Shown here piece after piece: positions 13,141-28,329 of a DNA stretch of 64,000 nucleotides. The first letter of the stretch is position 1. The number at the start of each line of letters is the position of its first letter. The position numbers and the translations under genes are program-made. The DNA comes from an uncultured Acidobacteriota bacterium (GTDB taxonomy: Bacteria > Acidobacteriota > Blastocatellia > RBC074). Location of the stretch: positions 18,587 through 82,586 of the forward strand of contig CAIOZW010000046.1 of NCBI GenBank assembly GCA_903862855.1. Reading direction: 5' to 3'. The notes beneath the pieces were generated by a model, which did no database searches, was not told where the DNA came from, and saw nothing but the letters and a program-made list of their open reading frames with translations.

Positions 13141-13432
13141 GCCTCCTCATAGAATGGCAGGCGGGAGAGGCGATCCGTCACTCCTGCCTGTCGTCCGCCC
13201 AACCGCGCTGACTGTTCCAATCGGCCCCCCCATCTCCCAACATTGAAAACCACTAATCCCGAATATTCACTCCTTTTTGTTACAGCCCTATTGTGACAGC
13301 CCATAATTGATTCTCAATATCTGAATTGATTTACGGCGACGGTCAAATTCACCTCTTAATAAATAAATTGTATATAGCTCCCGTGCTAAGTTACGTCGTA
13401 TTTTTAATTTGAGCCGAGTCGAACGAAGGCAA

Positions 13433-16400
13433 ATGACAACCTCATTGATTGGCCTCGGCGATCTGGATGTATGGAAGAAGAGACAACTGCACACGGGGCG
13501 ACTCCTGAGAATGAAACACTATATTTTGCGACATCGAGCAAGCACTCTCTCGATTCTGGCCACGGTAATTCTGATGCTGGTCGGGATGATTGAGAGAGCA
13601 GATCTTCCTGACTCACCCAATCGACCGAGACGTGACCGGGATAGAGGTTCATCAGTGGATCCGCGCAATTCAGCCGGACGGCTCACCGCCATTCCGAAGC
13701 TTCCGGAAGGAGTCAGGGACGGAGACTGGCAAGGGATCGTTGCCGCTCATGAGCAGGCAAAGTATGAGATTCGCAGCGACGGGCGCGCTTGGAAGGCGTG
13801 GAATCCAGGCCAGCAATGGATGACCATTTTCGACCGGCGCGGTTTTTTGACGAGGTCGACCACCAGGACGGGCCGCGATAACTGGTCGTGGGGGTTGGAG
13901 CTGCAGGGATATGGAATTGGAATCGAGCAGACGGAACTGAAGAGTCTGGTGCCGGAGGTGCGCACATCCGGAGGCAGATTGAGCTACGACCGAATCGATC
14001 GTCAAGGACGGAAGATCGAGGAGTGGTACGAGAACGATCAGCGCGGTTTTGAGCATGGCTTCACGATCTTTGAGCGCCCCGCTGCGCGTGCGGTGGGCGG
14101 TGAGCTGACGGTTCGTCTTCGGATTCGAGGAGATCTTCAGGCAAATCGGTCGAGCGATGGACGACTGATCTCGTTTGAGCAGGAGAATGGCGAGCAGATG
14201 CTAAGCTACAGCTGGCTGAAGGCGTGGGACGCGACGGGCCGGGAGCTTCCATCCCATTTCGTTGACTTGGGGCCGCGTGAGTTCGGGATCGCCGTCGAGG
14301 AAAACGAAGCCGTCTATCCGATCACCATCGATCCGCTGGCGCAGCATACCTTCCTAAAGGCCAGCGTGCACAGCCCGACCGGAGAGGAGTTCGGCACCTC
14401 GGTGGCAATCTCCGGCGACACCGCCGTCGTGGGTGCGCCAAGCGATGACAGTGGATCCAGAGGAATCAACCAGCCACCAGACTTCGTCTACCCTTACGAC
14501 AATTCTGGAGCGGCCTTTGTCTTCGTGAGAAAAGATGGGATCTGGACGCAGCAGGCCCACCTGAAGTCGAGCAATTCGTGGACTGGTGACAGGTTCGGGA
14601 TCTCCGTGGCTATCTCCGGAAACACGATCGTGGTCGGAGCGAGCGGGGAGAGCCAGACCACCGACGGGGTCGACGGAGAACAGTGCCTTCTGGGTAGCGT
14701 CCCGTGCTCTCGAACAGATATTTATCCCATCTACACTGCGCCGGGAGTTGGGGCGGCCTACGTCTTTGTCCGCACCGGGACAACCTGGGTGCAGCAGAAC
14801 TATCTCAAGGCAAGCAACTCAGAGGGGGATGACTATTTTGGATGTTCTGTCGCAATTCACGGTGACACGATCGTTGTTGGGGCCAACGAGGAGGACAGTG
14901 GAGCGAGCCTCAATGGTAACCAGAGCGACAACAGTGTTGCCGGTGCCGGAGCCGCCTATGTCTTCTTTCGAAATGGAACATCCTGGATTCAGCAGGCCTA
15001 TCTGAAGTCCGCCTTGCCCGCTGCCAATGATCAGTTTGGATACGCAGTGGCGATTCACAACAACACAGCGATCATTGGTGCAGTCTTTCAGGGGGATGGG
15101 GCAGCAGTCTCCGGCGCCGCCGGCGTATTTGTACGCAGCGGTTCAACCTGGAGTCAGCAAGCTCTCCTGAAGGCTCCAACACCAGTTTCGGGTGACTATT
15201 TTGGTGCAGCAGTGGCAGTGTGGGGAGACCGGGTGGTGGTTGGTGCACAGGCTGAGGATACCAACGGAACCGATTCCGGGGCGGCCTATGTCTTCAAAAG
15301 GACGGGCACTTCCTGGAATCGGGAAGCAACACTCAAGCCGAGTGATACTGACGCCGATGACAACTTCGGATATGCCGTCGCGATTCAGGGTGAGGCGATC
15401 ATCGTTGCCGCCTCCAACGAAAATACGGTTGCCGAGGGAGCGGCCTACCTGTTCTACCTCCAATCCACTAATTGGGTCGAGGAGAAGGTTCTCCGGGGTC
15501 GGAAGACGGAGCCCCTTGATCGATTTGGTTCGTCGATCGGATTCTCCGAGGATATTGCAATCATCGGGGCACGCTATGAAGAGAGCAATGCGACGGGCAT
15601 CAATGGAGATGAGGAAAACAATCTGTTATCGCAGTCCGGTGCAGCATACACTTTCGATATCGAGCCAATGCAGATGGTCACCCGGATCGTCGCCGACACC
15701 GGACAGGTCAGTCCAGGTACGGTCGCAACCATCTACATTACCATTACCAATCCATCATCAATCAGCCGGAGTACAAACATCGACTTCACCGTGCCAGATG
15801 GACTGATCCTGATCCCCGGAAGCTGCAATGGGGGTGGAGGAGTATGCACGATGACTCAGAGTACAGCGATCTCCGTTGATGAAAGCAATCGGAACAAGCT
15901 CCGTGGAAAAGCGGGCCTCGACGCCTCAAGCTCCGGTCCGTGGCAGATCTTCTGGACAGGATCGATTGCTGCCAATGGCTCGATCGTCATCAGTTTTCAG
16001 GTACAGGTGGGGGGCCAAGCCGCGTCAGGGACGCAGTTCTGCTTCCCGGTGATCAACTCGGGAGTGACACAGAGCATCTGTTTCAGCGTCACGGCCCCAC
16101 CGCCAGGGCCTGGTATTATCGCTCCAACCGCCGCCGCTGCCAGTCAACTCAAGGCTGGCAGCGTTCTAATCTATAACCTCTACACGTCAGGGCTCAATAC
16201 AAACTTCCAGGATACCCGACTGACTATCACCAACATCAGTCCGGTCAACGGGGTCAATGTCCACCTCTTCTTCATCGACGGTTCGAACTGTACGGTCGCC
16301 GATCAGTTTGTCAGGCTGACCCAGAATCAGACGGTGAGCATGCTCGCGAGTGATGTCGATCCCGGAGTGACCGGCTATGTCATCGCCGTCGCCACGGATG

Positions 16401-16993
16401 AGCGGGGCTGTCCGATCAACCAGAATGAACTGATTGGTGGGGCACTGGTCAGGTTCGAGCAGGGACACCGAGCCTATCTGCCGGCGCTAGGGATCTCCGC
16501 GCTGACCGGTCAATTGCCCTCATGTACTGACAGCTCGGTGACGGCAACACTCAACTTTGATGGGGTGAGGTACAACACACTGCCCCGCACACTGGCTCTC
16601 GACAGCCTCCCCTCGCGGGCCAACCTGAACGAGACGATGCTGATCGTCAACCGACTCGGCGGTGATCTTTCGACCGGAACCTCGAGGCTCGAGTCGATCG
16701 CCGGGCTGCTCTTTGACGACCAGGAGTCCGCACAGAGTTTCGTGCTCACGGGGGGAACCTGCCAGTTGATCGGCATACTTGGAAACAACTTTCCCCGGAC
16801 CTCACCGCGTTACGACACGGTGATTCCCACTGGCCGGACAGGGTGGATGAAGATGAGCCAGATCAATGATGGCGCAATCAGTGGAGCAATGATCAACCAC
16901 TCGACCATTGGCTTCAGTCAGGGGCATAACCTGCACGTGTTGACGACAACGAGTACGGCCAGCCTGACCATTCCGGTCTTTCCGGCTCTTTGA
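13433..16993 (+). CDS. Very large secreted protein: N-terminal region, a 7-bladed FG-GAP/integrin-alpha-like beta-propeller, a DUF11/CARDB-like repeat, and a ~280 aa unassigned Cys-containing C-terminal domain shared with the gene at 20233-23601.
   Basis: Repeated FG-GAP-like blades (DxFGxSVAIxGDTxVVGAxxxD) occur about 7 times. The C-terminal domain is 60-65% identical in aa to the C-terminus of the Kelch protein. Alternative starts exist at TTG 13409 and ATG 13511; the latter gives a signal peptide. Confidence 0.7.
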   Translation: MTTSLIGLGDLDVWKKRQLHTGRLLRMKHYILRHRASTLSILATVILMLVGMIERADLPDSPNRPRRDRDRGSSVDPRNSAGRLTAIPKLPEGVRDGDWQGIVAAHEQAKYEIRSDGRAWKAWNPGQQWMTIFDRRGFLTRSTTRTGRDNWSWGLELQGYGIGIEQTELKSLVPEVRTSGGRLSYDRIDRQGRKIEEWYENDQRGFEHGFTIFERPAARAVGGELTVRLRIRGDLQANRSSDGRLISFEQENGEQMLSYSWLKAWDATGRELPSHFVDLGPREFGIAVEENEAVYPITIDPLAQHTFLKASVHSPTGEEFGTSVAISGDTAVVGAPSDDSGSRGINQPPDFVYPYDNSGAAFVFVRKDGIWTQQAHLKSSNSWTGDRFGISVAISGNTIVVGASGESQTTDGVDGEQCLLGSVPCSRTDIYPIYTAPGVGAAYVFVRTGTTWVQQNYLKASNSEGDDYFGCSVAIHGDTIVVGANEEDSGASLNGNQSDNSVAGAGAAYVFFRNGTSWIQQAYLKSALPAANDQFGYAVAIHNNTAIIGAVFQGDGAAVSGAAGVFVRSGSTWSQQALLKAPTPVSGDYFGAAVAVWGDRVVVGAQAEDTNGTDSGAAYVFKRTGTSWNREATLKPSDTDADDNFGYAVAIQGEAIIVAASNENTVAEGAAYLFYLQSTNWVEEKVLRGRKTEPLDRFGSSIGFSEDIAIIGARYEESNATGINGDEENNLLSQSGAAYTFDIEPMQMVTRIVADTGQVSPGTVATIYITITNPSSISRSTNIDFTVPDGLILIPGSCNGGGGVCTMTQSTAISVDESNRNKLRGKAGLDASSSGPWQIFWTGSIAANGSIVISFQVQVGGQAASGTQFCFPVINSGVTQSICFSVTAPPPGPGIIAPTAAAASQLKAGSVLIYNLYTSGLNTNFQDTRLTITNISPVNGVNVHLFFIDGSNCTVADQFVRLTQNQTVSMLASDVDPGVTGYVIAVATDERGCPINQNELIGGALVRFEQGHRAYLPALGISALTGQLPSCTDSSVTATLNFDGVRYNTLPRTLALDSLPSRANLNETMLIVNRLGGDLSTGTSRLESIAGLLFDDQESAQSFVLTGGTCQLIGILGNNFPRTSPRYDTVIPTGRTGWMKMSQINDGAISGAMINHSTIGFSQGHNLHVLTTTSTASLTIPVFPAL

Positions 16994-17194
16994 GCAACAA
17001 GCGGACTGACGGTTTACCACCTCAACCAACGGCTGCTGGTTGATCACCTCATTCAGCAACACAAAAATCCATCGATCAGGATGGATGGGGAACGTTTACT
17101 TTGGCGCGGGCCAGGATGCGGCGCCCCGTTGCGGCACGTCAATAAGTGCACCTGCAGATCCGAAGGGATAGTGCGATTCCCCTCGCACTTCTTA

Positions 17195-17428
17195 TGACAC
17201 AAACCTCTGACAGAAACATCGTCACTGCTTGTGTAACGATCCTCGAAAGCCACTGAAGACTGGTACCTGATGATCCCACGCCATACCATTTCATTGCCGT
17301 ACCGCTACTAGTGCTGATTTTGGTCACCTGGAATCATCACGCCTGGCTCGATCCAATCCCCATCTCCACTTCTTCGCCGTGACTCTATCTCCAATTTTTG
17401 ACCAGCATGATATCGCTCAGTCCAACAT
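17195..17428. repeat. Copy A of a ~215 bp non-coding repeat (about 96% identical to 23645-23866). It overlaps the last 14 codons of the regulator gene.
   Basis: Direct near-identity with copy B from tgacacaaac to ttttgaccagcat. Copy A has an extra 13-nt tandem duplication at its 5' end. Confidence 0.7.
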
Positions 17429-19505
17429 ATGGACGGCTAACGGCATAGCGCCGCTCATCTCTGGCGACGGTGAGCGAGTAGAGTCCATTGGCAGTGGCCT
17501 CGACAACCCTTCCCAGAGTTGTGATCCGGCGAGTCCGAAGATCGAGTCGCTCGATGGATGAAGCGGGCCCGGCTTCATAGTGGAAGAAGTAGATGGCATC
17601 TTTGCCGATATCCCAATTGCGATCAACATAGAGATTGGCCAGCTCGACGACCTCTGACTCGGTACCCGTGGCAAGATCGAACTGTACCAGCCGATTGTTT
17701 CGGCTATGGTAGAGAGTTTTGCCATCGGGCGAAAGTATCGGACACGTCCGCGTGTTTGTACCCGGCGGTGTGACAATGACCGCCTCTCCCCCCGATACCC
17801 TAACCTTCCAGGTCTGGTATGCAGTGCGGGGTATAGCCCGATTTGAAGAGTAATAGATCCACTCCCCTCCAGGTGCCCAGAATGGAAGGACGTTCGATCC
17901 AATCGAATCGCTGACCCTTGCCGTTTGAGCGCCATTGAGATCGATCGTGTAGATGTCACTGTCTCCCCTGTTCCGACGGTCAAAAACAATTCGGGTACCA
18001 TCCGGAGACCACCGTGGACTTCCCACACCCAGCTCTCTGAAGTTGGTCAACTGCCTCACCTTGGAGCAATCAGCGTTGACTTGGTAAATCTCATCCCATC
18101 CAGATCGATCTGATCCAAAGACCAGTTGTGACCCATCAGGGGAGAGTTGGGGAAAGTTGTCGGCTCGGGTTGAATTGATTACACAAGGTTGATCTTTTTG
18201 ACTGGAGAGGTTGTAAACCTCGATTCGAAAGTCGATCACCTCACTGGTATATGCAAGGAGCGCGCCATTCCGTTCGATGGAGAAGGATGTAATCGGCACC
18301 GGTACCGAGGAAACTGGTGTTGCTTTATCACCATTCAGACCAACCTGGTAGAGCTGACCTGGACCACCCTGTCGTGAAATAAATAAGATCTTCGTGCCAT
18401 CAGTATCCCAGCTAAGGGAACCCGGTTGAATCAGGTAGCGTTCTTTTGTCAGCTCGCGGATTTGGCCACTAGCTAAATCGACAATCGTGACGTGATTATC
18501 CTCGTTACCTTTTGAACGGAGGAAAGCAACTGAGCGACCATCTGGAGAGAAACGCGGAGTTGAATCATAAATGGTACCTGCCGCATCCTGGCGGGTGATC
18601 TGCTGCCGCACGAATCCGTCAACAGAGATAATGAACAGTCCCATCCCTCCACCAGCGCCAGCAAGTCCGGTCACAACCAGTTTTTTGCCATCGGGAGACC
18701 AGTCCAAACCACCATCAACCCGGGCCAATTCCCGCTCGGGTCCTCCAAGGGTTGGAACGATAATCAGATGGTTCGGCGAACCAGCCTTTTCATCGACCCG
18801 CTGAAATGCAAGTTGCAGTCCATCTGGTGACCAGACAGGCTGCAGATCCGCCCCTGGATTTGTTGTGACCCTGACTTGCTTGCCACCATTGGTCTGCTGA
18901 ATGTAGATATCACGATTATTAATATCTCCACCGTCCCAGGTATAGGCGATGAAATGGCCATCGGGTGAGAGTGCCGGATACTGCTCGACACCAGGATAGG
19001 CCGTAAGCTGAATCGGTAATGGCATTTCCCAAGATGCAAGCCGTTGAGAGCGAACCAACACCAGCACACCAATAATCGCCGCGATCAAGAGAATGGCCAG
19101 TAGACCTGCCACAATTAGCCAGACCTGTTTATTGCGCGACATTTCATCCAACCGGCCTGTGTTGACCTCAGCAACCGGTGGGGTCACCGAATCGTTGACA
19201 ACCGTCACCTCCGGTTGGAACCTATAGCCAAAGCCTTGGACTGTAATAATGACTGTTGGATTGCGCGGATCGTCACGAAGCAACCGGCGAATCGAGTGGA
19301 TCTGGTTGGAGAGATTTCCCTCCTCGACATCCTGATCTGGCCAGACTTGTTGGAGGATCTCGTTCTTGGTGAGCAGCCGACCTGCATTCGTCACGAGCAT
19401 TAACAGTATGTCGTACCTCTTGCGGGTCAAGGGCACAAGGTCATTGCCATCGATCAAAACTACCTTATCGGTATCCAGAATAAATGGCCCAAAGTGATAC
19501 CGCAT
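17385..19505 (-). CDS. CadC/ToxR-like one-component transcriptional regulator: OmpR/PhoB-type winged-helix DNA-binding domain, a single TM helix, and a periplasmic TolB-like (PD40/WD40-like) beta-propeller.
   Basis: N-terminus has LTRKRYDILLMLVTNAGRLLTKNEILQQVW...GYRF (trans_reg_C). The TM segment is VWLIVAGLLAILLIAAIIGVLVLV. At least 8 PD40-like repeats of the SPDG type. Confidence 0.8.
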   Translation of the reverse strand: MRYHFGPFILDTDKVVLIDGNDLVPLTRKRYDILLMLVTNAGRLLTKNEILQQVWPDQDVEEGNLSNQIHSIRRLLRDDPRNPTVIITVQGFGYRFQPEVTVVNDSVTPPVAEVNTGRLDEMSRNKQVWLIVAGLLAILLIAAIIGVLVLVRSQRLASWEMPLPIQLTAYPGVEQYPALSPDGHFIAYTWDGGDINNRDIYIQQTNGGKQVRVTTNPGADLQPVWSPDGLQLAFQRVDEKAGSPNHLIIVPTLGGPERELARVDGGLDWSPDGKKLVVTGLAGAGGGMGLFIISVDGFVRQQITRQDAAGTIYDSTPRFSPDGRSVAFLRSKGNEDNHVTIVDLASGQIRELTKERYLIQPGSLSWDTDGTKILFISRQGGPGQLYQVGLNGDKATPVSSVPVPITSFSIERNGALLAYTSEVIDFRIEVYNLSSQKDQPCVINSTRADNFPQLSPDGSQLVFGSDRSGWDEIYQVNADCSKVRQLTNFRELGVGSPRWSPDGTRIVFDRRNRGDSDIYTIDLNGAQTARVSDSIGSNVLPFWAPGGEWIYYSSNRAIPRTAYQTWKVRVSGGEAVIVTPPGTNTRTCPILSPDGKTLYHSRNNRLVQFDLATGTESEVVELANLYVDRNWDIGKDAIYFFHYEAGPASSIERLDLRTRRITTLGRVVEATANGLYSLTVARDERRYAVSRPYVGLSDIMLVKNWR

Positions 19506-20232
19506 AGATCTGATAACCTCTACCCCAACATCTCAGTTGTTCGAGCTGAAGAACTGTTGTTGCTCGATTATTGTGATTTTGAGGAATGTGAACGAGCACC
19601 AACCGGGACTGTCTGTACGGTTGTGCTCCCTTGTTTCTTCAAGCATTTTTGACCATTTACTTCACCTCTATTCCTTACGATCTGTATTGTAGACTACTGA
19701 TCCATTCAATGGGAAGCAGGAGCCAGGCGGCCAACTGGTGTTAATCTCACTGCTCTCTGTAGGCAGTCCCAAGTCAATAACTATCCACCCCATTCCATTT
19801 CATAACGGATTCCGAATGCATAATCAGGCACTTCAACGCTGAATTGATAAATTTTGAGACTCTTTTCAACTGGCTTTATGAGAATTTTAAGAATTTTAAC
19901 CTCCGCTAAAGGATTTTGGTGGAACATTCTACATAGATTTGAATTTCTTAGATCGGCAAATTAATAGCTCTCGGTAACCATATTCAACAATGAGAAGACC
20001 AGGGAGAAGACTGGGGCCTTCCGTTTACAAAGTCAGGCTTGAATTTAAAGACCTGCTGTTTTGCTTGAAGCATCTTTGCCCCTGAGTCACTTGATTGTTC
20101 AATAATTCCAAAATTTAAGCATGGCTTCTATCTGGCCACTGTGAATAGATAACACCCGATCTCCTGGCATTCATCAAGAATTGATGATTTTTCTAAGATT
20201 ACGGCTGCACATACAAAGAAAGGAATTGTTAA
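19506..20232. promoter_or_regulatory. A 730 bp strongly AT-rich divergent intergenic region between the regulator and the Kelch gene. It contains gaatttta and ttgaattt direct repeats that may be promoter/operator sites.
   Basis: GC falls to roughly 35-40% against ~60% flanks. Motifs gagaattttaagaattttaac and gatttgaatttctt / cttgaatttaaag. Confidence 0.35.
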
Positions 20233-23200
20233 ATGATATTCCAGTCATCGTTGAAGAGATATAAAATGACTTTTTCGGTCATTCTTCTACTCCTATTGAT
20301 AGTCAGTAGGCCACAAAATGATGATGTCAGTTCGTCGCATAACCGATCACAATTCAGAGAAGGCTCAGTGCAAGTGGACGGGGTTGAATATTACGGACAA
20401 GTCGTAGGTGGAGCTCACACCGACTTCAAGCCTGCGGTGCAGCCGATTGTGAGCCGGAAGAATAGCCAACTGGGGCTTTTCTTTCCAGAGAGGGCCAATG
20501 AACCCTTTGTTGTCGATGCTGAAGGAGTTCGTGTCACGCTCAAGGCCATCGGTGTGAACGCTGCTCCAATCAAGGTTGGTGAGGGGGAGATTCGTTACCA
20601 GGCGGTCTACACCAAGACAGACAGTCTCCACAAGATAGAAGATGGTCGGAGCGAGGAGTTTCTCTATCTACACGACAAGACTGCCCCAACCAGCTTCGAG
20701 TATGAGTTGACTGCGATTGATGGAACTGACGACGTCTCGCTTAAGTCAGGAGCGATCATCTTCAGTCGCAGTGGAAGCCCAAAACTTCAGATTGAGGCAC
20801 CTTGGGTGATCGACGCTGATGGAAAGCGAAGCGATGAAGCCGTGCGCTGGGAACTTGCTCCATCAGATGATAACGGGAGCCGCCGCTTGCGGCTCAATCT
20901 TGACCCCACAGGTCTGCGTTATCCCCTGACTGTCGATCCGAGCTGGTCGGTTGTTGGATCAATGTCTGTCTCACGTGGTGCGCCAATGGCAGTAAAGCTC
21001 CAAAATGGCAAGGTACTCGTTGTGGGGGATTCGAGTACTTGCGAGCTCTACGATCCAGCTGCGGGGACTTGGAGCACAACCGGATCGCTCTCAGGGTTTA
21101 GAGGTGACGCAACACTTACTCTGTTACAAGATGGAAGGGTTCTTGCAGCCGGTGGGTATGATGGTGCAAGTACATACGGAATGGCCAGCGCAGAGATCTA
21201 TAACCCGTCAACTGGAACCTGGAGCTTGACCGGATCGCTTAGTCAAAAGAGGCAGTCGCATACCGCTACATTGTTGCAAGATGGAAAAGTATTAGTAGTT
21301 GGTGGATACAACTATCCATTTACCGGAGCTGGCACCGACCTCGAATATCCTGAATTGGCAGAGATATATAATCCTTCCACAGGTACTTGGACATCTGCTG
21401 GTAATTCAAGACCGCGTTTGTACCATAAGGCAACTCGGCTAAACAACGGTAAGGTGCTAGTTGTAGGTGGGTATAATAATACCGTCGGAAATACGCAGAC
21501 TGCCGAGCTCTTTGATCCAACTACCAGTAGCTGGGCCGATGCGGGGTCGACCGGAACTCGAATGGAACCCACGGCAACGCTTCTTTCTAATGGCAAAGTA
21601 CTAGTCGTCGGTGGTCGAACCTCTGGAGCTCCTGGATCAGATTCTTCACTGACAACCTCATTGATTTACGATCCAGTGGCTGGAACCTGGTCAAGTACTG
21701 GATCACTAAGTGGGAAGCGCGCGGATCACACTGCAACTTTGTTGTCAAATGGTAACGTTCTGGTTACCGGAGGCGAAAGTCCCCTATTAACATCTTTGTC
21801 AACTTCAGAGATCTATGATTCGACTGCGGGAACTTGGAGTTCATCAGGATCAATGGCAACTGCGCGTCGAAGACATCAGGCAGTATTACTTACAGGTGGG
21901 GCCACGCTAATCATTGGAGGATTTTCAGACAGCACCACAAAGCTGAGCAGTGCTGAGCGCTATGGCGATCCGAATCAGGCCCCGACCATCACGGCAGCGA
22001 GTGGGGTGTCACGAACGGCGGGAAGCGGTTCGAGTAACTCAACCATCGCCACGGTAACCGACGCCGAGACCGCCGTGGGAAGTTTGACCGTCACTGTTAC
22101 CAGCACCAATCCTTCGAATGGGGTGACTGTCTCAAACATTGCCAATACGACTGGAACGATCACTGCTGACATCGTTGCCGCGAGTGGAGCGACGAACGCG
22201 ACCTTCACGCTCCAAGTGAGTGATGGAACTGCAACTACAACTGCCCAGCTTAACGTAACCGTGTCGTCCACACCACCCGTGACTGTTGATACTGGTGATG
22301 CCAGTGGTAGTGGGGTGTCAGCGCAGACTACACCAGGAAGTGTCATTCCTTTGACACAGGTACTTCGCAACAATACATCCACCCCAGTGACTACGACATA
22401 TGTCGGGACTCTGCCCAATGGGTTGGAGCTGGTCACTGGAGGCTGTCAAGCAAACATTGGAACCTGCACTGTTGGTCCTCTTATCGCGCCCTATAATGGG
22501 CCGGATTCACTCCGGCGCAAATTTGTCCAGACTGCTTTGCAAAGTAATGGAGTTGCGACCTGGGTTGGCACAATTCCGGCTAACAGCACGGTGACGATCA
22601 CGTTGCTAGTCAAGGTTAACCAAGACGCATCCAGCGGGACTCTCTGTATCGCATCGACAATTGGTGGAGTAGGAGCGACATCCTCCTGTGTCAAGATTGT
22701 AAACTCATTTGCAGGTCCTGGATTCCCCCAGATTTTTGCTTCGCCACCCAGTCAACAACGCCCGGGGAGTCTGCTCATCTACAACCTTTACACCTCCGGA
22801 ACCAGCAGCGCTTCACAAGACAGCAGAATCGCCTTGACCAACACCAACTCGGTCAATCCGGTCTCGGTGCACCTCTTTATGGTCGATGGGTCGAACTGTT
22901 CGGTTGCCGATCTCTACGTGACACTGACGCAGAATCAGACGGTAAGCCTGATGGCGAGTGATCTCGATCCCGGAATTACCGGGTACATTATCGCTGTCGC
23001 CACTGACAAAAATGGATGTCCAGCCATTCACAACGACCTGATTGGCGAAACATTCGTGAAGTTCGAGAGTGGTCATCGAGCAAACCTGCCGGCGCTCGGC
23101 GTCGCCGGTCTTCTTCCGGGAAATCCACTCTGTACACCAGACTCGGTTACCGCGACCATTGCCTTCGATGGCGTACAGTACAACGAACTGCCAAGATCTC

Positions 23201-23601
23201 TGACCATCAGCAACCTGCCGCCACCGGCGACTGGCAATAGTACAATGCTCATCGTCAACCGCATCGGAGGAGATATGGCCGTCGGAGCACAGACTCTCGG
23301 AAATATTGCCGGCTTACTGTTTGACGATACCGAGACTTCACAGAGCTTCGTTCTAACCGGAGGTAGCTGCCAGTTGCGAGGTATCCTCGGGAACAACTTC
23401 CCCCGGACGGCTCCACGCTACACGACGGTCATACCCGCCGGACGGTCGGGGTGGATGAAGTTCTGGACGAACGACAATCAGGCGATCACTGGTGCGGTGA
23501 TCAACGAGGCCTCGATCGGGTTCAGTAACGGTCATAACCTCCACTATCTGACAACAACCAATACCGCCAGCCTGACTATTCCGGTCTTCCCGGCTGAATA
23601 G
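20233..23601 (+). CDS. Large secreted Kelch/galactose-oxidase-type beta-propeller protein with a DUF11-like segment and the same unassigned C-terminal domain as the 13433-16993 protein.
   Basis: Signal peptide. Repeated Kelch-like blades (GKVLVVGG / DGRVLAAGGYDG ... Y.P.TGTWS). C-terminal 280 aa are paralogous to the FG-GAP protein. The N-terminal 2.5 kb has markedly lower GC. Confidence 0.7.
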   Translation: MIFQSSLKRYKMTFSVILLLLLIVSRPQNDDVSSSHNRSQFREGSVQVDGVEYYGQVVGGAHTDFKPAVQPIVSRKNSQLGLFFPERANEPFVVDAEGVRVTLKAIGVNAAPIKVGEGEIRYQAVYTKTDSLHKIEDGRSEEFLYLHDKTAPTSFEYELTAIDGTDDVSLKSGAIIFSRSGSPKLQIEAPWVIDADGKRSDEAVRWELAPSDDNGSRRLRLNLDPTGLRYPLTVDPSWSVVGSMSVSRGAPMAVKLQNGKVLVVGDSSTCELYDPAAGTWSTTGSLSGFRGDATLTLLQDGRVLAAGGYDGASTYGMASAEIYNPSTGTWSLTGSLSQKRQSHTATLLQDGKVLVVGGYNYPFTGAGTDLEYPELAEIYNPSTGTWTSAGNSRPRLYHKATRLNNGKVLVVGGYNNTVGNTQTAELFDPTTSSWADAGSTGTRMEPTATLLSNGKVLVVGGRTSGAPGSDSSLTTSLIYDPVAGTWSSTGSLSGKRADHTATLLSNGNVLVTGGESPLLTSLSTSEIYDSTAGTWSSSGSMATARRRHQAVLLTGGATLIIGGFSDSTTKLSSAERYGDPNQAPTITAASGVSRTAGSGSSNSTIATVTDAETAVGSLTVTVTSTNPSNGVTVSNIANTTGTITADIVAASGATNATFTLQVSDGTATTTAQLNVTVSSTPPVTVDTGDASGSGVSAQTTPGSVIPLTQVLRNNTSTPVTTTYVGTLPNGLELVTGGCQANIGTCTVGPLIAPYNGPDSLRRKFVQTALQSNGVATWVGTIPANSTVTITLLVKVNQDASSGTLCIASTIGGVGATSSCVKIVNSFAGPGFPQIFASPPSQQRPGSLLIYNLYTSGTSSASQDSRIALTNTNSVNPVSVHLFMVDGSNCSVADLYVTLTQNQTVSLMASDLDPGITGYIIAVATDKNGCPAIHNDLIGETFVKFESGHRANLPALGVAGLLPGNPLCTPDSVTATIAFDGVQYNELPRSLTISNLPPPATGNSTMLIVNRIGGDMAVGAQTLGNIAGLLFDDTETSQSFVLTGGSCQLRGILGNNFPRTAPRYTTVIPAGRSGWMKFWTNDNQAITGAVINEASIGFSNGHNLHYLTTTNTASLTIPVFPAE

Positions 23602-23613
23602 TCACAATCTGTC

Positions 23614-23645
23614 AAAAGAAGAGGGCCTGCTGGCCCTCTTCTTTT
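23614..23645 (+). terminator. Rho-independent terminator of the Kelch gene.
   Basis: aaaagaagagggcc-tgct-ggccctcttctttt perfect hairpin with a T-run, 13 nt after the stop codon. Confidence 0.7.
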
Positions 23646-23866
23646 GACACAAACATCATCACTGCTTGTGTAACGATCCTCGAAAGCAACTGAAGACTGG
23701 TACCTGATGATCCCCCGCCATACCATTCCATTGCCGCACCGCTACTAGTGCTGATTTTGGTCACCTGGAATCATCACGCCTGGCTCGATCCAATCCCCAT
23801 CTCCACTTCTTCGCCGTGACACTATCTCCAATTTTTGACCAGCATAATGTTACGCAGTCCGACACT
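23645..23866. repeat. Copy B of the ~215 bp repeat. It includes a 14-codon remnant (...VGLRNIMLVKNWR*) of the regulator's 3' end on the minus strand.
   Basis: About 96% nucleotide identity to 17208-17428. The remnant reading frame ends with the same stop as the regulator gene in copy A. Confidence 0.7.

Positions 23867-28255: not shown

Positions 28256-28329
<74 letters not shown>

Follow-up and report, generated by a model that had tools for sequence, protein, structure and literature searches.

Two giant, apparently secreted proteins encoded near each other in an uncultured Acidobacteriota bacterium (class Blastocatellia) carry unrelated β-propellers but closely similar C termini, which raises the question of what this constant C-terminal part is and what it does for the proteins that bear it. 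We have addressed this question in the window, that is, the whole stretch of 64,000 nucleotides that was analyzed (assembly GCA_903862855.1, contig CAIOZW010000046.1, positions 18,587 to 82,586 of the forward strand), in which the two open reading frames (ORFs), A and B, flank a regulator gene, R. The C-terminal module of A and B represents a large, hitherto unannotated family that appears restricted to Blastocatellia (Acidobacteriota). It is predicted to form two all-β lobes stapled together by disulfides, and the role that we favor for it is that of a binding or targeting module. The features on which the argument draws, in window coordinates, are as follows.

13409..16993, plus strand: ORF A, 1194 aa from the first possible start (ORF list); N-terminal hydrophobic signal/anchor, ~250-aa N-terminal region, FG-GAP_2 propeller, Cys-rich Ig-like pre-domain, C-terminal module
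15698..16126, plus strand: pre-domain of A, residues 764-906; Cys-rich, Ig-like, DUF11-like at motif level only
16142..16990, plus strand: C-terminal module of A, residues 912-1194, ending ...TIPVFPAL before the stop codon; lobe 1 at ~16142-16504, lobe 2 at ~16505-16990
17385..19505, minus strand: ORF R, 706 aa (ORF list); membrane one-component regulator
20233..23601, plus strand: ORF B, 1122 aa (ORF list); signal-like N terminus, N-terminal region, Kelch propeller (~residues 240-570), Ig-like module (residues 581-690), pre-domain, C-terminal module
22318..22734, plus strand: pre-domain of B, residues 696-834
22750..23598, plus strand: C-terminal module of B, residues 840-1122, ending ...TIPVFPAE before the stop codon; lobe 1 at ~22750-23112, lobe 2 at ~23113-23598

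The module family and its passengers

The first-pass annotation of this DNA had described an FG-GAP protein, a regulator with a TolB propeller and a Kelch protein with a common C-terminal domain, and Pfam confirms all three (FG-GAP_2 in A, Trans_reg_C and PD40/TolB in R, Kelch in B). The propeller of A comprises seven FG-GAP_2 stretches (241 bits, E 6.4e-73) and that of B matches Kelch_1 (118 bits, E 1.2e-34) and Kelch_4 (99 bits), in each case above threshold. With 19% identity, the N-terminal passengers of the two proteins are indeed unrelated. By contrast, A764-1193 aligns with B696-1121 by BLASTP at 53% identity over 431 aa (E 9e-134), and within this segment it is the final 283 aa that are best conserved (65% identity, against 29% for the preceding ~140 aa). 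Both proteins begin with a hydrophobic 13-mer (residues 49-61 of A, Kyte-Doolittle score 2.9; residues 12-24 of B, score 3.0), and for A the ATG at 13511 is the likelier start, as it gives a basic-then-hydrophobic N terminus, MKHYILRHRASTLSILATVILMLVG.

No third copy of the module was found in the window, and neither Pfam (2025 copy) nor NCBIfam (June 2026) has a model that matches it, even at E <= 10, in keeping with the earlier remark that it resembles none of the common sorting domains. A sequence-profile search of the PDB with the module returned only noise, the best match being a type IV pilin (E 0.035), with neither 1nc7 nor 2ii7 recovered, and a literature search for a Blastocatellia C-terminal domain of this kind found nothing. 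Yet the module is anything but rare. A single-sequence search yielded 787 proteins with one domain, the 120 best of which have E < 1e-82 throughout and lack any Pfam assignment over the module, while at least 563 stretches encode it among species-representative genomes. A profile search, exhaustive over 1.84 billion cluster representatives (50%-identity level), returned 1,381 representatives at E <= 1e-3 and 741 at E <= 1e-30. Chance similarity is thus ruled out by the E value of 9e-134 and by the more than 1,000 representatives, and so is the one-off duplication that had been envisaged as the finding that could overturn the idea of a family.

The organism names that the sources give are all Acidobacteriota or Blastocatellia, and a search with the most divergent copy likewise gave such names only, with none from outside Acidobacteriota. 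Several loci bear the titles of metagenome-assembled genomes (MAGs) labeled 'Heliomicrobium sp.' or 'Heliobacteriaceae', names that belong to the Firmicutes (L016, L022, L029, L031, L035, L037, L039-L043, L049, L052, L055, L057, L060, L061, L064 and L066). These labels are probably wrong, since at least one of these contigs (L041) encodes a TonB-receptor-like outer-membrane protein. Copies also accumulate within genomes. Among the matches listed, at least seven contigs of one MAG and three sites on one 9.5-Mb chromosome carry the module, and 17 of 77 loci hold two or three copies within 20 kb, a pattern that the A-B pair in the window fits.

To establish where in the protein the module lies, we counted positions in six-frame ORFs from the 77 fetched loci. 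In all 94 canonical ORFs, the module ends 1-3 residues ahead of the stop codon. What stands before it is extremely variable: host proteins range from ~320 aa to more than 3,600 aa in these loci, and reach 5,807 aa in the representative set, and 54 N-terminal passenger regions contain 52 Pfam families. These include He_PIG, HYR, DUF7933, DUF11, subtilase with P-domain, FG-GAP and other propellers, as well as SdrD_B, Big_9, LTD, EEP nucleases and Laminin_G, so that enzymes are among the passengers. About 20% of members (12 of 56 complete ORFs) are stand-alone, consisting of a signal-like segment and the module alone, and such small genes often adjoin large passenger-bearing ones (L030, L042, L067, L002 and L034). 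The proposed family of a variable propeller with a constant C-terminal domain is therefore borne out as to its modularity, its constant domain and its variable secreted passengers, but propellers are not specific to it and about a fifth of members have no passenger at all.

Nor is the module always C-terminal, a point that a profile search had been proposed to check. Among 290 copies, 24 are N-terminal or internal; these lie in 13 proteins of the representative set, and most of them lack the cysteines described below. Twelve of the 13 proteins carry two or three copies, P0233 has one N-terminal copy, and two clusters among these proteins are named Blastocatellia. One divergent relative, P0128 (L080, 603-4049), has two Cys-poor copies, one N-terminal and one internal, and ends in three SLH-like repeats that score 19.5 bits against a Pfam cut-off of 20.8.

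A strongly hydrophobic N-terminal segment is present in 44 of 56 complete hosts, and in A and B, by a crude hydropathy test, and the conserved disulfide cysteines described below imply an oxidizing compartment. We take the host proteins to be exported by Sec and the module to be extracytoplasmic.

In most multidomain homologues, the module is preceded by a Cys-rich Ig-like pre-domain like that of A and B (A2 consensus). Its earlier designation as DUF11 does not hold for the window proteins, in which PF01345 has no Pfam match: the pre-domain of A reaches only E 0.099 with TIGR01451, which is below the NCBIfam threshold, and that of B has no significant Pfam match. It does hold for segments at the equivalent position in P0085 (56.9 bits) and P0035 (50.7 bits), which pass the DUF11 threshold, while P0046 is sub-threshold (18.6 bits). 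Compared by BLASTP, the A/B pre-domain and the true DUF11 of P0085 give E 0.36. The pre-domain of A and B is likely a divergent relative of DUF11.

Several observations concern the passengers themselves. The Ig-like module at residues 581-690 of B (window 21973-22302) recurs at 46-70% identity in many family members, often in tandem (four times in L004, and also in L007, L017, L038 and others), from which it follows that passenger modules are shuffled among paralogues. Upstream of the propellers, residues 162-309 of A (13892-14335) and 98-236 of B (20524-20940) form a weakly similar N-terminal region of ~150 aa (BLASTP E 0.07), which stops at YP(I/L)T(I/V)DP, directly before the propellers. 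At L026 (2684-5705), a protein with an A-like N-terminal region and FG-GAP repeats (31% identity over 747 aa) does without the C-terminal module, and adjoins a family member. At L001 (7207-10852), the 283-aa 'stand-alone' protein P0064 begins inside the module (MIYNLYTS...), directly after an 887-aa DUF4394/Calx-beta gene. The two are likely a single gene split by a frameshift, or else the start was miscalled, which implies that some short database members are fragments. Finally, two paired stand-alone genes at L002 (594-7460) have as neighbors a WYL-domain gene and a type I CRISPR-Cas cluster (Cas3, Cas_GSU0053, Cas_GSU0054), which is probably a coincidence.

Predicted fold and cysteine pairing

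The AlphaFold2 model of the module (45-sequence alignment; the copy of B is a member of alignment A1, the input for the model) is all-β and two-lobed, with a pLDDT of 92 and a pTM of 0.90. Searched as a whole against the PDB with Foldseek, it has no global match, and Thermotoga TM1070 is its sole consistent match; two-jelly-roll capsids and vicilins, the top Foldseek matches, were disregarded because their TM scores are below 0.25. TM1070 and ASRT, which are tetramers, belong to the ASRAH superfamily defined by De Souza, Iyer & Aravind in 2009, the hallmarks of which are a nearly invariant Asn ending strand 2 and a conserved Trp starting strand 1, and the extracellular versions of which occur as dyads or tetrads (PMC2739507).

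In the model, lobe 2 has the eight-stranded β-sandwich topology of the ASRT/TM1070 type ('ASRAH'). Lobe 1 is probably a sandwich of this type too, since it is predicted to fit ~8 strands into ~113 aa, ends strand 2 in an invariant Asn, and takes part in a best whole-model alignment that differs slightly from that of lobe 2 on its own. As placed by the predicted strands, this Asn, N41, closes strand 2 (residues 34-41), and a conserved first-strand Trp is found in neither lobe. With lobe 2 identified as ASRAH-like, the two-lobed model agrees with the dyad form of extracellular ASRAH domains. Sequence comparison of one lobe with the other gives no significant similarity (E 0.19-0.25), and an internal duplication is unsupported at that level.

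The four cysteines that the first-pass annotation had singled out are conserved across the family: those at module positions 60, 100, 138 and 217 are kept in 209-214 of the 216 sequences of the family. In most members they are joined by two further cysteines, at position 68 (in a 'CLT' motif) and at the last or penultimate residue ('PVFPPSC'). Cys68 and the terminal Cys co-vary almost perfectly, being both present in 157 sequences, both absent in 57 and present singly in only 2 (n = 216), and A and B belong to the 57 that lack both. The patterns in 290 copies (CCCCCC 209, C-CCC- 43, --CC-- 12, ------ 8, C---C- 2, CC--CC 2, -C---C 1) show cysteines being lost in a way that defines three pairs: C60-C217, C68 with the C terminus, and C100-C138. 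Every one of these pairs joins lobe 1 to lobe 2. Most members are thus predicted, from sequence co-variation, to have three inter-lobe disulfides, of which the window copies would keep two, and on the simplest reading the pairing is intramolecular and the module a rigid, disulfide-stapled unit. The conserved extreme C terminus, also confirmed, is best explained by the same pattern: since the terminal Cys co-varies with Cys68, the end of the module would be a last β-strand and a disulfide partner rather than a sorting tag.

Roles considered for the module

The reading that we favor, and to which we would give about an even chance, is that the module is an autonomous extracytoplasmic binding/targeting unit, a stapled ASRAH-type dyad with a common ligand that is plausibly a glycan of the envelope or matrix. 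Host proteins would leave the cytoplasm by Sec. The variable N-terminal passenger would then do the protein-specific job, by means of an FG-GAP or Kelch propeller here and of Ig-repeat adhesins, subtilases or nucleases elsewhere, while the constant module would bind in its dyad cleft a single ligand shared by all, which is probably a glycan belonging to the cell envelope or the extracellular matrix. Such binding would target many different secreted proteins to the same place, or retain them there, and the stand-alone copies would represent the same binder in free form. This reading builds on the family itself, the position of the module in the protein, its fold, the pattern of cysteine pairing, the diversity of passengers, and a lack of sorting motifs and partner genes; to these it would add ligand binding, the glycan nature of the ligand, and retention at the surface or in the matrix. 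That the module is autonomous follows from the stand-alone members and from the N-terminal and internal copies. As to the anchoring or secretion role suggested earlier, these same copies, together with the structural nature of the terminal strand, weaken a part in secretion or sorting and favor binding, or anchoring by means of a ligand.

A number of points weigh against a binding module. That the module binds any ligand is something we infer, and sugar binding by ASRAH domains, proposed to take place in a cleft partly walled by the dimer interface and to extend to other small molecules, is itself only a prediction (PMC2739507). For the same reason, a known lectin or carbohydrate-binding family, which had been named as a match that would refute the earlier reading, is approached by the ASRT/TM1070-like fold but not reached. 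The ASRAH-like fold was confirmed by a separate search for lobe 2 only. When the lobes were compared by hhalign with an 11-sequence ASRT/TM1070 alignment, E values were 0.17 and 0.045, with probabilities of at most 1.2%; as profile-profile comparison thus finds no link, the case for homology to ASRT is one of fold. Intramolecular cysteine pairing is deduced from co-variation, and pairing between molecules may occur instead. No glycan-synthesis or other informative genes recur near the 77 loci. Lastly, a strict C-terminal position, many paralogues and very diverse cargo together are the classic signature of a secretion or sorting domain.

That signature is the basis of the main alternative, in which the module is a C-terminal secretion/sorting domain like the C-terminal domain (CTD) of the type IX secretion system (T9SS), read by a lineage-specific outer-membrane translocation or attachment machinery and perhaps cleaved or covalently anchored. 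The module is strictly C-terminal in the 94 canonical ORFs, genomes hold many paralogues, the cargo varies extremely, with proteases and nucleases among it, the family is confined to one lineage, and T9SS CTDs are β-sandwiches as well. We nevertheless consider this unlikely. With ~283 aa in two lobes, the module is about three times the size of known CTDs, and about a fifth of its members have no cargo to be sorted; copies can be N-terminal or internal, and some proteins have two or three. The terminal residues form a structural strand, with the terminal Cys in a co-varying pair, and neither Pfam nor NCBIfam has a sorting-domain model that matches. Within 10 kb in the 77 loci, there is no recurring candidate for the machinery, the genes of which could, however, lie elsewhere in the genome. 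A version of this idea tailored to the family, which we hold to be rather doubtful, makes the module the recognition or attachment domain of an undescribed, Blastocatellia-specific sorting pathway, in which dozens of proteins per genome, exported by Sec and folded with disulfides, would be directed by a large CTD onto or through the outer membrane, and stand-alone copies would be components or decoys.

The stand-alone copies could be viewed differently again, as major subunits of a fiber, sheath or surface layer in which the module self-assembles and the paralogues display their passengers, with the terminal Cys and Cys68 perhaps bonded between molecules. The frequent juxtaposition of small stand-alone and large passenger-bearing genes would fit such a structure, as would the tetrameric state of TM1070 and ASRT (PMC2739507), and co-variation by itself does not separate inter- from intramolecular disulfides. 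We regard self-assembly as improbable, however: the predicted monomer is complete and confident, its C-terminal strand appears integrated, all three cysteine pairs span both lobes as an intramolecular staple would, the subgroup of the window copies (57 of 216) lacks the terminal pair, and no usher, sortase or chaperone genes recur near the 77 loci. It is very improbable that the module is an enzyme that acts on envelope polymers (a hydrolase or transferase, for example) and is attached to targeting passengers. Many polar residues are invariant in canonical members (H51, D56, D83, H119, E205, R229 and H275), as an active site might be, but only D83 of these seven is conserved in divergent copies, and the set conserved in all copies consists mostly of Gly, Pro and core hydrophobics with N41, D83, N105, K114, R181, Q218, W245 and N273. 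The predicted sandwich is moreover a non-catalytic fold whose nearest neighbors are binding modules, and some passengers are enzymes themselves. A polymorphic-toxin system can be ruled out, as the family has a constant C terminus and a variable N terminus, whereas in such systems the arrangement is the opposite.

Acidobacteriota are among the most abundant bacteria of soil and freshwater, and how they build and decorate their surface is poorly understood. In Blastocatellia, much of the secreted proteome bears the module, with dozens of paralogues per genome, some of more than 5,000 aa, which include proteases, nucleases and adhesin-like proteins that automated annotation labels 'hypothetical' or names after their Ig repeats only. 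Defining it makes it possible to catalogue the surface and secreted proteome of uncultured Blastocatellia and draws attention either to a ligand that these proteins share or to a sorting pathway. The module merits a new Pfam/InterPro entry whatever the function; should it mark a new sorting pathway, the finding would become striking. Its predicted fold would tie it to a known but barely characterized superfamily. The ASRT/TM1070 fold, on which little work has been done, would thereby appear in an extracellular setting that is new for it, and its lobes would there be held together by an unusual staple of three disulfides.

Regulator, surroundings and known systems

ORF R, which separates A from B, is a one-component regulator of ToxR/CadC topology, with an N-terminal winged helix-turn-helix (wHTH) domain, a single transmembrane (TM) segment and a periplasmic sensor. 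The wHTH domain is of the OmpR/PhoB type (Trans_reg_C, residues 24-96, 19218-19436 on the minus strand, E 2.7e-18) and is followed by a 24-residue hydrophobic stretch (residues 128-151, 19053-19124, minus strand) and by a PD40/TolB-like propeller (17388-19013, minus strand; PD40 E 5.6e-41; the TolB model gives E 2.5e-59, which is below its cut-off). R is like CadC in topology but is not its orthologue, its sensor being a TolB-like propeller and not the periplasmic domain of CadC. An exact look-up of R in public assemblies gave no record. R and B are divergently transcribed across an AT-rich spacer of 727 bp, and R may control B locally. A general proximity of the module to CadC-like regulators, which had been proposed as a check, was not borne out: a regulator of the R type adjoins a family member in only 1 of the 77 loci (L010, 46% identity), which indicates that R is not part of the general make-up of the family. 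One other locus of the 77 has an unrelated wHTH protein nearby.

More generally, clustering of neighboring ORFs within ±10 kb of the 77 loci revealed no recurrent partner genes. The commonest families, present in at most seven loci, are generic acidobacterial ones: a TonB-receptor-like protein, a Ser/Thr kinase with TPR repeats, an SDR and an FtsX-type permease. In the window, the GC content of 18001-22000, which spans R, the R/B spacer and the 5' half of B, is 49%, against 54-63% elsewhere; this could reflect a separate acquisition of the R-B unit, or merely local composition. At 30-1391 lies the gene of a further secreted-type protein, which contains three fn3 domains and one PPC domain. No RNA families were found in the A-R-B region, the sole match in the whole window being a tRNA-Met gene (28256-28329, minus strand), and promoter and terminator scans of the sequence stayed at background level.

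Set against known systems, the module resembles, in its distribution, the constant C-terminal elements that occur on diverse exported paralogues within one lineage, such as the T9SS CTD, PEP-CTERM, LPXTG, GlyGly-CTERM and the autotransporter β-domain. Unlike these sorting domains, it matches no model, is followed by neither a TM helix nor a basic tail, and also occurs alone, N-terminally, internally and in multiple copies, so that it is not obligatorily C-terminal, single or cargo-bearing. Another such precedent is Soli_cterm (TIGR03437), a lineage-specific C-terminal domain of unknown function found on dozens of secreted paralogues in an acidobacterium, which belongs to a different class from Blastocatellia. 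The module does not match Soli_cterm in NCBIfam even at E <= 10, and a literature search found nothing on that domain. Surface-retention and carbohydrate-binding modules (CBMs and SLH domains) also count among the closest known systems.

In predicted structure, the nearest counterparts are the ASRAH proteins, represented by Anabaena ASRT (PDB 2II7), Thermotoga TM1070 (PDB 1NC7) and the Pfam family PF07100/DUF1362. The module differs from them in having no detectable sequence relation (PF07100 has no match at E <= 10), no SHExxCxxN signature and, as the predicted strands place it, no conserved first-strand Trp. Its two lobes are fused into one ~283-aa unit with up to three predicted disulfides, and it sits at the end of giant secreted proteins from another phylum. 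Parallels in proposed function are an actinobacterial cell-surface lipoprotein with two ASRAH domains and secreted amidases of Chloroflexi with four (PMC2739507). These are likewise extracellular tandem sandwiches, proposed to bind cell-surface polysaccharide or peptidoglycan and thereby to localize a protein or enzyme domain (PMC2739507). They can, however, be detected from ASRT by PSI-BLAST, and have fixed architectures and conserved neighbors (WhiB, a glycosyltransferase), whereas the module family has hundreds of architectures and no conserved neighbor. What is new in the module is the putative fused dyad, its predicted triple disulfide staple, and its use as a constant C terminus on hundreds of architectures in one bacterial class.

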